Below the pieces are notes generated by a model that saw only the letters and a program-made list of their open reading frames with translations, did not search any database and was not told where the DNA came from. From contig CAWDZA010000023.1 of assembly GCA_963806635.1 (NCBI GenBank), positions 226,876 through 258,875 on the forward strand: a DNA stretch of 32,000 nucleotides, written 5' to 3'. Origin of the DNA: an uncultured Chloroflexia bacterium. GTDB lineage: Bacteria; Chloroflexota; Anaerolineae; Anaerolineales; Anaerolineaceae. This document shows positions 21,777-24,285 of the stretch, piece by piece. The position numbers and the translations under genes were made by a program. The first letter of the stretch is position 1, and each line of letters opens with the position of its first letter.

Positions 21777-22229
21777 TTATGCAATAACATCAATCTTTGG
21801 TTCAATAATGATCTCGGACTTCACGGAATTCGCGACCAGGCTATATTTTTGAGCCGCTGATAGTGCTTTTCGAATTCTTCCCTGGATTATCTCGGTTGTT
21901 TCATTCCCTGCCGAAACGCGTATCACCGGAAAAAACCGAAGGTGGGTGAATATCTCGGTGCGGTCCAATTCGATTAGCTTAGTACCTTCAGCGCGGCATT
22001 CGTAAGAAATCAGATCTAATTTATAGCGTTCAGTAGCCCAGATGAACATCATCATGATGCACGTGTTCGCCGCGGCTACAAAAGCATCCTCGGGAGTAAG
22101 GACACCGGAATGTCCCTGAGCGTCCGGAGGCGCGGAAAAATCCATTTGCGGACCATTCCCCATGACGACGTGCCCCCAATGCTCTCCTTTCCAGTTCACG
22201 GTGGTGTGATATGTTGAGGTTTGGCTCAT
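21777..22229 (-). CDS. OsmC/Ohr-family protein, single-Cys variant
   Basis: TPEDAFVAAANTCIMMMF retains the first Cys. The second conserved Cys position reads KYSLVANSV. Its ATG shares one base with the upstream TGA (TGATG). Confidence 0.7.
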   Translation of the reverse strand: MSQTSTYHTTVNWKGEHWGHVVMGNGPQMDFSAPPDAQGHSGVLTPEDAFVAAANTCIMMMFIWATERYKLDLISYECRAEGTKLIELDRTEIFTHLRFFPVIRVSAGNETTEIIQGRIRKALSAAQKYSLVANSVKSEIIIEPKIDVIA

Positions 22230-22972
22230 CAATTTCCCTCTTTGTTATAGAAATTTGTATACTCGGTCAAAAGTACTTCACAATATTTCTCATCCTCTCC
22301 CTGGGGGATCTCGTTATATAACCTAACCGTTTCCAGTAATTCTTTGGAAGTTGTGGTGGAGGGCTGCTTACCCTCCTGCCGAAAATTTGATAAGATTAGC
22401 GGTAATGCGATAAGTTTGACTTCCTGACCATTTATGGGAACCACCTGCACGGGGATACCGGAACCACAGGAACAGGGGGCAATCTTTCCAGTTTCATCTC
22501 TAGTTTCAGATTCTGGCGTAGCCACGCCAATATCTTCAAAGGCACCCGCTGTTCGGTTCCAGTGCTTTCCAAGTAAATCATCCACTATGGCTGATATTTT
22601 GTCGGCAGTGGCATCCACAGCCTGCACCCCGGCCTCATTTAGACGGCGGCGACCTTCCGGTTGTTCAGGACCATTTTCCGCTAAAACGTCGCGAACCATG
22701 ATACTTGCGGCTGGTTTGCTGGAATACTCTTCGGTTCCGCGCGAAGCGCAACGGAGCTCACAGCCATCCACGGCGATGGTCGGATAGAATTTGGCAAACG
22801 CCCGGTCGCCTTGACCGCCAGCCAGGAAGAGCGGCAGGCAAATGGTGACCGTGTCATCCGGGCGAAGTTGATCCAATACTTTTCGGGTTGCAAGCCGGGT
22901 GATCGTACCCTCTGCCAGTTCTTCGCCCGAACAGGCAACAATTCCAACCTTCTTTTTTGGCAGGTCAGGCAT
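22229..22972 (-). CDS. DGC-domain protein (long form) with an extra C-terminal CSCGSG-containing domain
   Basis: VGIVACSGEE...TIAVDGCELRCA is the DGC pattern. The C-terminal about 90 aa (APCSCGSGIPVQVVPINGQEVKLIALPL...) is unrecognised. ATG at 22972 with an AAGGAAGG RBS. 8-nt overlap with the upstream gene. Confidence 0.65.
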   Translation of the reverse strand: MPDLPKKKVGIVACSGEELAEGTITRLATRKVLDQLRPDDTVTICLPLFLAGGQGDRAFAKFYPTIAVDGCELRCASRGTEEYSSKPAASIMVRDVLAENGPEQPEGRRRLNEAGVQAVDATADKISAIVDDLLGKHWNRTAGAFEDIGVATPESETRDETGKIAPCSCGSGIPVQVVPINGQEVKLIALPLILSNFRQEGKQPSTTTSKELLETVRLYNEIPQGEDEKYCEVLLTEYTNFYNKEGN

Positions 22973-23402
22973 TTCGACCTTCCTTTGATTTGGTGGCGAG
23001 GTTGTCAATACAGATTGAAGCTTCATCCGCAAGGGCTTCTGCAAGTCTTATCCCGTTTTCATTAAGTACAGCGATTCCCTCCGGTCTAAAATCCTTATAC
23101 CTGCGATAGACATCCAGAACATCGAACGCCTGAGCGATTTTCCCGCCGCTTTCTTCAACCATTTTGGAGGCGCAAGCCAGTTTACAACCATCGATGGTTA
23201 TCGCTGGGTTTCCTGAAACTTTGGCAACAGCGGATGCTTCCCCCATGACAAGTTTTGCAAGTGCCACCAGGTCGGTATATTCTGGACGCAGGTCCTCGGT
23301 GATGATATATGCCGCTTCCCGGCTGACAGAACCAAAGGCTTTTCCAATCCCGCTGCAGGGAACGATGACCACTTTTAAGTTAGTTTCTTTTCGGGGTTTC
23401 AA
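22965..23402 (-). CDS. DGC-domain protein (short form)
   Basis: KVVIVPCSGIGKAFG...AITIDGCKLACASKMVEE is the DGC pattern. TTG start overlaps the gcvH-like stop (TTGA). Confidence 0.65.
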   Translation of the reverse strand: MKPRKETNLKVVIVPCSGIGKAFGSVSREAAYIITEDLRPEYTDLVALAKLVMGEASAVAKVSGNPAITIDGCKLACASKMVEESGGKIAQAFDVLDVYRRYKDFRPEGIAVLNENGIRLAEALADEASICIDNLATKSKEGRNA

Positions 23403-23845
23403 CTATTAACCTCGCGCTCCGCGTCGGCTTTCATTCTGGAAAAATAGGATTTTGGGTCCAAAAGACGCGTTTTCTCATTATTCCAATCACTTGCTTTGAT
23501 CACTACCAGCCACCCAGCTCCAAACGGATCCCGGTTGATAACCTCAGGGGCTGTGACGAGTTCCGGGTTTACTTGAACAATCTCACCAGTGATTGGGGAG
23601 GGCAGTTCGATATTTACTTTCATGGTCTCAATTGTTGCGAGCCGCGAACCAGCATTTACCTGTTTACCAACAGGGTTCATCTCGGCAAATGCCACATCAC
23701 CGTTATGTTGTTGAAAGAAATCAGACACACCAACTCGAACCTGGTTCTCTTCGGTTTTCAACCAAAGTCCTTCCGCGCTGTATAAGCGATCTGTAGCGAC
23801 TTTGAAAATAAACTTGTCCACCATTGCTTCAAGAAATTCAGACAT
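23399..23845 (-). CDS. Glycine-cleavage H-protein family lipoyl-carrier homolog (orphan)
   Basis: LYSAEGLWLKTEENQVRVGVSDFFQQHNGDVAFAE...LATIETMKVNIELPSPITGEIVQVN...DPFGAGWLVVIK aligns with GcvH, including the lipoyl-lysine position. ATG at 23845 with GGAG 8 nt upstream. Confidence 0.8.
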   Translation of the reverse strand: MSEFLEAMVDKFIFKVATDRLYSAEGLWLKTEENQVRVGVSDFFQQHNGDVAFAEMNPVGKQVNAGSRLATIETMKVNIELPSPITGEIVQVNPELVTAPEVINRDPFGAGWLVVIKASDWNNEKTRLLDPKSYFSRMKADAEREVNS

Positions 23846-23881
23846 AATTTTCTCCAAATAAAATAATCGGTTTGAAAAACA

Positions 23882-24235
23882 TTAACATCCCTCATTGCGT
23901 TTTTTGCTGCAATTTGGACAGCAGCAATTTGGGGAAGGTGCGAGATTTGGAAGGGATAGACCTTGAATCTCTGCCGTGCGTCGAATCAGATCCAAAATTT
24001 CCAGATTGTTCAACCGGTAGTGCTTGTTCCGACCAAGTCTGCGAACCGCGAGGATGCCTGCTTTACGAAGAGTCATTAAATGCTGGGAAAGGTAAGCCTG
24101 CCTCCAACCGAAAGTGGCTTCAAGATGACAAACGCAGGGATCCTCCCCGCCAATTGCCAGAAGAATCAACAACCTCGGGGTTGGACTGATGACACCTAAC
24201 AAATTTGATACTTGTTCAACTTCTAATACATTCAT
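23882..24235 (-). CDS. arsR: ArsR/SmtB-family regulator with CVC metalloid site and a Cys-rich tail
   Basis: DPCVCHL (compare the canonical ELCVCDL), wHTH QAYLSQHLMTLRKAGIL, tail NCCCPNCSKKRNEGC. The ATG at 24235 is preferred; the ORF-track TTG at 24259 is the alternative. Confidence 0.8.
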   Translation of the reverse strand: MNVLEVEQVSNLLGVISPTPRLLILLAIGGEDPCVCHLEATFGWRQAYLSQHLMTLRKAGILAVRRLGRNKHYRLNNLEILDLIRRTAEIQGLSLPNLAPSPNCCCPNCSKKRNEGC

Positions 24236-24262
24236 ATTATTGAATATATCATAAATCAAGAA

Positions 24263-24285
24263 AACCGCAATATTTATTGCAGGTT
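24263..24285 (-). terminator. Hairpin after the aminopeptidase gene (terminator candidate, may double as an operator)
   Basis: Minus strand reads AACCTGCAATA-aa-TATTGCGGTT followed by TTCTTGATTT. The stem is AT-rich and has one bulge. Confidence 0.35.

Follow-up and report, generated by a model that had tools for sequence, protein, structure and literature searches.

A conserved GcvH-like, DGC-domain and OsmC-like gene cassette linked to arsenic genes in Chloroflexota, with a proposed lipoyl thiol relay

Why does an operon headed by an ArsR repressor, next to genes for arsenate reduction and arsenite efflux, encode an orphan lipoyl carrier, two proteins with a domain of unknown function (DGC) and an OsmC-like protein? 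The question is raised by a stretch of 32,000 nucleotides, hereafter the window, from an uncultured Chloroflexia bacterium (assembly GCA_963806635.1, contig CAWDZA010000023.1, positions 226,876-258,875). The cassette in question occupies positions 21,777-24,285 of the window, and all coordinates below are those of the window unless another locus is named. Based on a comparison of related loci, the cassette is real, non-random and widely conserved, and its link to arsenic genes is strong; its biochemical role stays a proposal.

An earlier description of the window made from its letters alone (the sequence-only reading) had claimed five packed minus-strand open reading frames, encoding ArsR, a GcvH-like protein, two DGC proteins and an OsmC-like protein. 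All five were found, and profile searches matched each to its family (Table 1). Reading the sequence confirmed the overlaps listed there, TTGA at 23399-23402, ATGCCTGA at 22965-22972 and TGATG at 22227-22231, together with the gap of 55 nucleotides between the OsmC-like and thioredoxin genes. The start/stop overlaps between the GcvH-like, DGC-short, DGC-long and OsmC-like genes measure 4, 8 and 4 nucleotides, implying that the cassette genes are probably translationally coupled.

Table 1. Positions of the cassette genes, the putative operator and the adjoining arsenic and mercury genes in the window
Feature	Position	Strand	Description and evidence
Operator-like palindrome TATTCAATAATATGAATG	24229..24246	-	Putative ArsR binding site; overlaps the arsR ATG
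arsR	23882..24235	-	ArsR/SmtB repressor, 117 amino acids from ATG; HTH_5 9e-6, NF033788 1.8e-14
GcvH-like gene	23399..23845	-	Lipoyl-carrier protein, 148 amino acids; PF01597 6e-31, plus Biotin_lipoyl
DGC-short	22965..23402	-	145 amino acids, one DGC domain; PF08859 2.4e-15; TTGA overlap with the GcvH-like gene
DGC-long	22229..22972	-	247 amino acids; DGC domain, disordered linker, C-terminal domain; PF08859 2.4e-15
OsmC-like gene	21777..22229	-	150 amino acids; PF02566 2.4e-8, 34.8 bits against a cut-off of 27.5
Thioredoxin gene	21470..21721	-	Small thioredoxin of the MTH895/ArsE family, 83 amino acids, CxxC; TIGR00412 93 bits against a cut-off of 62; 1ilo 2e-11
arsC	21060..21473	-	Thioredoxin-type arsenate reductase of the low-molecular-weight protein tyrosine phosphatase (LMW-PTP) family; PF01451 5e-21, TIGR02691 5.5e-29; overlaps the thioredoxin stop codon
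acr3	20016..21063	-	Arsenite efflux gene; TIGR00832 2.6e-74 over the first part; one frameshift near 20490-20505
arsR1	19596-19919	-	Precedes hgcA-hgcB; separate unit downstream of the ars genes
hgcA	18576-19568	-	Mercury-methylation gene; NF040863 1.7e-124
hgcB	18275-18574	-	Two CxxCxxCxxxCP motifs and a C-terminal CC

Relatives of DGC-long were scanned using one genome per species, and the best 80 loci were fetched. Core genes were counted by tblastn with the window proteins in the 61 loci having enough flank, and linkage to ars genes within 8 kb in the 54 loci whose flanks reached at least 3 kb upstream and at least 4 kb downstream. DGC-long relatives were present in at least 584 species-level genomes, mostly of Chloroflexota/Anaerolineae. 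The best 80 were almost all metagenome-assembled genomes of Chloroflexota (Anaerolineae, Ardenticatenia, Caldilineae and Promineifilaceae), and single contigs labelled delta proteobacterium, Zixibacteria or Bacteroidota also carried relatives. The block was found in all 80 fetched loci, an arrangement far beyond chance. Both DGC-short and the OsmC-like gene occurred in 61 of 61 loci, the GcvH-like gene in 60, and the gene order was nearly always GcvH, DGC, DGC, OsmC, thioredoxin. The ArsE-type thioredoxin was likewise present in 60 of the 61 loci and is therefore the fifth core member of the cassette. The sequence-only reading had assigned it, with arsC and acr3, to a separate downstream unit; the adjacency of these genes holds, the placement of the thioredoxin does not.

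The same comparison ties the block to arsenic genes. Of the 54 loci, 53 encoded ArsR and 38 encoded one or more of Acr3, ArsC and ArsD, so that a check suggested in advance, namely whether the gene set recurs across genomes beside ArsR or ars structural genes, was passed strongly. Acr3 directly followed the block in 27 of 61 loci, with ArsD-ArsA or ArsP in others. ArsC lay within 8 kb in 20 of 54 loci and in the immediate vicinity of the block in 13 of 61, and ArsD was found in seven of 54.

We further analyzed the regulator and the individual proteins, judging residue invariance across 45-80 orthologues, depending on the protein. The cassette ArsR (ArsR2) has the CVC site (DPCVCHL) and the Cys-rich tail that had been claimed for it; C34, C36, C104, C106 and C109 are invariant in 45 orthologues, and the C-terminal cluster reads CxCxxC. 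It combines the ArsR/SmtB helix-turn-helix domain with the CVC metalloid site of As(III)-sensing R773-type ArsR proteins, and differs from these in that the third Cys of their motif is replaced by His. It also scores against the BigR model of sulfite/persulfide sensors (1.8e-10), far below the cut-off. An alternative TTG start exists at 24259; the ATG at 24235 is the likely start, because an ATGAAT start is common to the related loci and is overlapped by a conserved palindrome. This palindrome, TATTC-N6-10-GAATA with at most one mismatch, was present in 41 of 46 segments upstream of ArsR in related loci, directly upstream of or across the arsR start, against 1.4% of random segments of 120 nucleotides from the same loci; the window copy, TATTCAATAATATGAATG, has the spacing TATTC-N8-GAATA.

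Downstream, the 55-nucleotide gap between the OsmC-like and thioredoxin genes holds no terminator-like site, and the thioredoxin gene overlaps arsC, which in turn overlaps acr3; a single transcript from arsR to acr3 is therefore likely. The thioredoxin gene is preceded by an AAGGAGG ribosome-binding site. On the other side of arsR, between it and an upstream M29 peptidase gene, lies a second inverted repeat, CTGCAATAAATATTGCGG followed by a T run (24261-24286), which could be the terminator of the peptidase gene or part of the arsR control region.

The GcvH-like protein has the PF01597 fold and the lipoyl-lysine motif E-[ST]-[VM]-K of GcvH. As had been claimed, it keeps the lipoyl-lysine context (IETMKV), and the lysine is invariant in 73 of 73 sequences. 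The IETMK segment aligns with VESVK of Thermus thermophilus GcvH (1onl), placing K76 opposite the residue that we take to be the lipoyl lysine of that protein; K76 would be the lipoylated residue. The protein contains no Cys. It scores below both curated GcvH equivalog cut-offs (TIGR00527, 96.5 against 115.85; NF002270, 113.8 against 117), and we therefore regard it as a diverged GcvH paralogue. The absence of glycine-cleavage partners also held up, since GcvT, GcvP and Lpd were not found in the window, and none of them recurred among 79 related loci.

Conservation within the block is highest for the OsmC-like protein, whose median identity to the window protein is 76%, against 54-60% for the other core proteins. 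In its OsmC fold, helix 1 bears a Cys, C57, that aligns with the Cys of 2onf (Ta0195) and of 2d7v, and the PE motif supplies the Glu, E47; both residues are invariant. These two positions presumably hold the catalytic roles established for Ohr/OsmC proteins. The canonical resolving Cys of the C-terminal helix is replaced, the KYC of Ta0195 reading KYS here, with S130 invariant in 71 sequences. R68, C78, R118 and the whole KYSLVANS segment are invariant as well. The loss of the canonical second Cys had been recognized from the sequence; the label "one-Cys OsmC" given with it does not stand, because C78 (in SYEC) is invariant in 71 of 71. By its residues, the protein is neither a canonical two-Cys OsmC nor a one-Cys protein.

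Both DGC proteins match the PF08859 profile and carry the CSG and DGCxxxC motifs; C14-S-G, D69-G-C71 and C75 are invariant across the two paralogues in the alignment. In DGC-short the only invariant Cys are C16, C73 and C77, the strand-2 Cys being missing. DGC-long has an invariant four-Cys site (C14, C45, C71 and C75) and C167-x-C169 in its linker. The four-Cys pattern was present in 81 of 88 diverse DGC representatives and the CxC motif in 45 of 51. The AlphaFold (AF2) model of DGC-long, with a mean predicted local distance difference test score (pLDDT) of 81, is a four-stranded parallel alpha/beta, flavodoxin-like fold, followed by a disordered linker with the CxC motif and a compact C-terminal domain of a hairpin and three helices (pLDDT 86 when modelled alone). 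In this model C14 comes after strand 1, C45 closes strand 2, and strand 3 is followed by C71 and C75; the four Cys would thus gather at the C-terminal edge of the sheet, where such folds usually have their ligand or active site.

Searches for relatives of known function returned little. Neither the full DGC-long model nor the separate C-terminal domain had a PDB fold match at E <= 1e-3 in Foldseek, which gave only generic flavodoxin-like matches for DGC, and no sequence relatives of DGC-short or DGC-long were found in the PDB. At E <= 10, Pfam offered no family for the C-terminal CSCGSG domain of DGC-long and no second family for either DGC domain. The best fold match of the C-terminal domain was an RRE/PqqD-like protein (E 0.41), a non-significant hit and a mere lead. 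The Cys after strand 1, the Cys-x3-Cys layout and a weak Foldseek match to 2cwd had raised the idea that DGC is a divergent LMW-PTP/ArsC-like reductase; it was rejected on an hhalign probability of 0.9% (E 0.064). DGC-long had thousands of close relatives (6364 clusters at E <= 1e-3). The family occupies little sequence space, falling into 480 clusters at 50% identity. Natural fusions join DGC to DGC in five independent sequences (P0098, P0276, P0363, P0370 and P0381) and DGC-long to a Thioredoxin_3 domain in one (P0247), P0247 and P0276 having two members each. A DGC-long and OsmC fusion (P0380) was discounted, as it contains long out-of-frame stretches on a frameshift-ridden, noisy long-read contig.

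The thioredoxin belongs to the TIGR00412 family by both score and CxxC motif, with C11-x-x-C14 invariant. Around the five core genes, related loci repeatedly carry genes for thiol, Fe-S and arsenic chemistry. A protein of the AhpD-like CxxC type, similar to an arsenosugar-associated peroxidase-like family, was encoded in 18 of 54 loci, and a radical SAM/SPASM gene in 19 of 54 (TIGR04317 1e-77, below the cut-off), which resembles metalloenzyme maturases. The latter either separates arsR from the GcvH-like gene or stands between the OsmC-like and thioredoxin genes (for example, L035 1453-2706, L023, L030 and L052) and is closest to the maturase family of tungsten-cofactor oxidoreductases. A protein of 177 amino acids with a C-terminal corrinoid-protein-type [4Fe-4S] domain (PF04060) occurred in 24 of 54 loci, usually beside a second thioredoxin. 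There it forms a recurring trio with this MTH895/ArsE thioredoxin and a Cys-rich protein of 89 amino acids without a family (L016 5476-9800, L046, L063 and L028). ArsD-ArsA genes were inserted in or near the block in some loci, and TauE, DsbD, VKOR and cysteine desulfurase genes were further neighbours. The window itself contains no radical SAM/SPASM, AhpD-like, 177-amino-acid Fe-S protein or ArsD-ArsA insertion. At one locus on a contig binned as Bacteroidota (L085 2015-4488), the cassette stands beside a divergent arsR, an ArsP permease and an S-adenosylmethionine methyltransferase, which links it to organoarsenical genes there.

What could such a set of proteins do? Tentatively, and with somewhat less than even confidence, we propose that the cassette encodes a thiol relay, repressed by ArsR, in which a lipoyl swinging arm serves the OsmC-like enzyme as the last station. 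Arsenite would free ArsR from the TATTC-N8-GAATA operator, and the relay would be made together with ArsC and Acr3. The GcvH-like protein, once lipoylated, would swing its arm as a carrier between two enzymes whose synthesis keeps pace with its own. On one side, DGC-short and DGC-long may form a heterodimer in which the three-Cys, four-Cys and CxC sites make up a metal, Fe-S or redox-active centre, and the DGC pair and the ArsE-type thioredoxin would feed or exchange reducing equivalents. On the other, C57 and E47 of the OsmC-like protein would carry out a terminal reduction, most likely of a hydroperoxide given the OsmC/Ohr precedent, with the lipoyl dithiol or C78 taking the place of the resolving Cys. 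A swinging-arm complex is suggested by the translational coupling, the strict co-occurrence, the fusions and the position of a lipoyl carrier flanked by two enzyme-like partners. By analogy, the AhpD-like CxxC neighbours, the H-protein/OsmC pathway of Trichomonas, lipoyl-dependent Ohr enzymes and an operon of Pseudodesulfovibrio mercurii ND132 (the last three compared below) would also count in favour of a relay. Gene content, conservation, linkage to ars genes, invariant residues, fusions and operator motif rest on direct observation; lipoylation, the pairing of the two DGC proteins, the course of the electrons and the nature of the substrate are what we infer.

Several observations weigh against it. 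The dihydrolipoyl group is a classical target of arsenite, and a catalytic lipoyl relay induced by arsenite would therefore risk being poisoned, which would favour a binding role. The related loci show no recurring gene for dihydrolipoamide dehydrogenase or for any other obvious lipoyl reductase, and no peroxide-stress gene is specifically linked to the block. The OsmC-like protein lacks the canonical resolving Cys, and none of its Arg residues can be named as catalytic; the DGC domain is without a known activity or structural relative. Finally, about 30% of the loci (16 of 54) have no Acr3, ArsC or ArsD within 8 kb. The sequence-only reading had itself suggested a thiol/lipoyl relay, acting either in metalloid capture or as a lipoyl-dependent peroxidase. 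A relay of this kind fits the invariant thiols and lipoyl lysine, the coupling and the fusions; the evidence does not discriminate between capture and peroxidase.

A close rival to the peroxide-reducing relay, possible though rather doubtful, is the capture and hand-off of metalloid. Here the dihydrolipoyl arm and the DGC Cys clusters would bind As(III) or trivalent organoarsenicals, the dithiol suiting R-As(III) and the three-Cys site of DGC-short suiting As(III), and would either act as a buffer for the metalloid or deliver it to Acr3, ArsP or ArsA, in the way that ArsD serves ArsA; the thioredoxin and the OsmC-like protein would keep the thiols reduced. The affinity of arsenite for dihydrolipoyl groups is established chemistry, and this reading draws further on the tight linkage to efflux genes noted above, on the exactly three invariant Cys of DGC-short and on the arsenic-induced ND132 operon, which pairs DGC and ArsE with ArsP. 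However, a sink or chaperone leaves unexplained the OsmC-like protein, which is always present, is the most conserved of the block and has kept its Cys/Glu site. Moreover, no chaperone is known for Acr3, and the canonical DGC site, with its four Cys, looks more like one for Zn or Fe-S than one for As(III).

A bolder reading, which we consider unlikely, is that the cassette encodes the first lipoyl-dependent arsenic-handling complex, with the DGC heterodimer as a new metalloid-binding or -transforming unit. Between the DGC pair and the OsmC-like protein, the lipoyl arm would carry As(III), an organoarsenical or electrons that reduce pentavalent species.

It is less probable again that the cassette is a dedicated reductant supply resembling arsTX. 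When arsenite inhibits the housekeeping thioredoxin system, ArsC, and perhaps further ars enzymes, would then depend on reduced thioredoxin regenerated by the DGC pair together with the lipoyl carrier and the cassette thioredoxin. The overlap of the thioredoxin gene with arsC in the window, its core status and the fusion of DGC with thioredoxin (P0247) are consistent with this. Precedents can be named as well: lipoate is said, in work by Feeney from 2011, to exchange electrons with thioredoxin and glutaredoxin in Escherichia coli, and an ars operon with its own thioredoxin system is reportedly found in Microbacterium A33. However, the low frequency of ArsC beside the block (13 of 61 loci) or within 8 kb of it (20 of 54) argues against this role, which also leaves the invariant OsmC-like protein without a task.

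Least likely of all is a module for general stress, be it from thiols, sulfur or oxidants, that sits in arsenic islands only through the clustering of stress genes, its ArsR sensing persulfide, another metal or the redox state. The weak BigR match, the 16 loci without Acr3, ArsC or ArsD and the TauE, DsbD, VKOR and cysteine desulfurase neighbours would agree with it. Against it, the invariant CVC site is characteristic of ArsR proteins that sense As(III), ars structural genes are present in 70% of loci, and arsenic induces a related DGC/ArsE operon in cultured cells.

The remaining genes of the window bear less directly on the cassette. In acr3, the tblastn match to an intact orthologue begins in frame -3 and continues in frame -1, and the broken gene is either a pseudogene or the product of an assembly error. 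The arsR1-hgcA-hgcB unit has its own perfect TTGACA-16-TATAAT promoter (19929-19956). Membership of hgcAB in the cassette was considered and rejected, with hgcA found within 8 kb in none of 80 related loci; for the same reason, the adjacency is particular to this window among the loci compared. A general link of hgcAB to arsR and ars genes is already known (PMC7438021; bioRxiv 10.1101/2022.10.17.512643). Open reading frames of 286-443 amino acids without a Pfam match at E <= 1e-4 lie at 2180-3325 (-), 5712-6572 (+), 6780-7679 (-) and 25548-26879 (+), and a search of the window against Rfam gave no match.

If the lipoyl relay that we favour, or a related role in arsenic handling, is borne out, ars islands would be extended by up to five accessory genes. 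The block is frequent among the Anaerolineae, a group that abounds where arsenic is mobilised in anoxic soils, sediments and sludge. Two of the five core proteins contain the DGC domain, and the cassette would also provide a first functional handle on PF08859, as well as a bacterial counterpart to the Trichomonas H-protein/OsmC pathway. Should the bolder idea of a lipoyl-dependent arsenic-handling complex be true, anaerobic Chloroflexota would gain several new ars genes and the DGC domain a function. We know of no arsenic-resistance system built around a lipoyl protein, though arsenite toxicity is classically explained by attack on dihydrolipoyl groups.

How does the cassette compare with described systems? 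A description of the full cassette was not found in the literature, including searches on PF08859, ArsE and TsoR. The claim that it matches no described system thus stands for the complete gene set, but two partial precedents qualify it. The first comes from the hydrogenosomes of Trichomonas vaginalis, where an incomplete glycine cleavage system of H- and L-proteins, as summarized in the citing papers, reduces OsmC and detoxifies peroxides (Nyvltova et al. 2016, cited in PMC11316075 and PMC12440151). As far as these accounts go, both systems combine an orphan H-protein lacking P and T partners with an OsmC-family protein, and in both the lipoyl arm would serve as reductant in an anaerobe. Unlike the pathway so described, the cassette includes no L-protein, has C78 as a new Cys in an OsmC-like protein that lacks the resolving one, adds two DGC proteins and a thioredoxin, and is under putative ArsR control in ars islands. 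An L-protein gene was neither found in the window nor seen to recur in the related loci, and may be encoded elsewhere in the genome.

The second precedent is the arsR5-arsP-arsE-DGC operon of P. mercurii ND132, which is up-regulated by arsenic and whose DGC protein has no assigned function (bioRxiv 10.1101/2022.10.17.512643). It shares with the cassette an ArsR-family regulator, an ArsE-type thioredoxin (PF13192) and a DGC protein (PF08859). In contrast to the cassette, it has a single DGC gene, lacks GcvH-like and OsmC-like genes, and is coupled to ArsP rather than Acr3.

Further comparisons concern the use of lipoyl groups as reductants. Ohr/OsmC proteins are reportedly lipoyl-dependent thiol peroxidases, as put forward by Cussiol and colleagues in 2010, and the mycobacterial AhpC-AhpD-DlaT-Lpd chain also passes through a lipoyl protein. 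Common to these systems and the cassette are an OsmC fold with a peroxidatic Cys and a Glu, a lipoyl reductant and, in many related loci, AhpD-like proteins. Whereas Ohr/OsmC enzymes have two catalytic Cys at fixed positions and rely on a housekeeping E2 and Lpd, the cassette has a dedicated carrier, and Ser replaces the resolving Cys. The sHdr-LbpA system of sulfur oxidation likewise uses GcvH-like lipoate-binding proteins (PMC10332631). It resembles the cassette in employing a GcvH paralogue with a lipoyl lysine in non-glycine chemistry, alongside Cys-rich and Fe-S partners. Unlike that system, the cassette lacks Hdr-like, DsrE, TusA and dedicated lipoate ligase genes, and its context is arsenic, not sulfur oxidation.

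Among ars accessories, the ArsD metallochaperone and the arsTX thioredoxin are Cys-based proteins that hand As(III) to the pump or supply reductant to ArsC. Like the cassette proteins, they are encoded in ars operons. They have no sequence or fold relation to the cassette, ArsD having a thioredoxin fold and DGC a flavodoxin-like one. Taken with these likenesses and differences, the cassette is best filed with the accessory thiol systems of ars islands and with the lipoyl-dependent OsmC systems.

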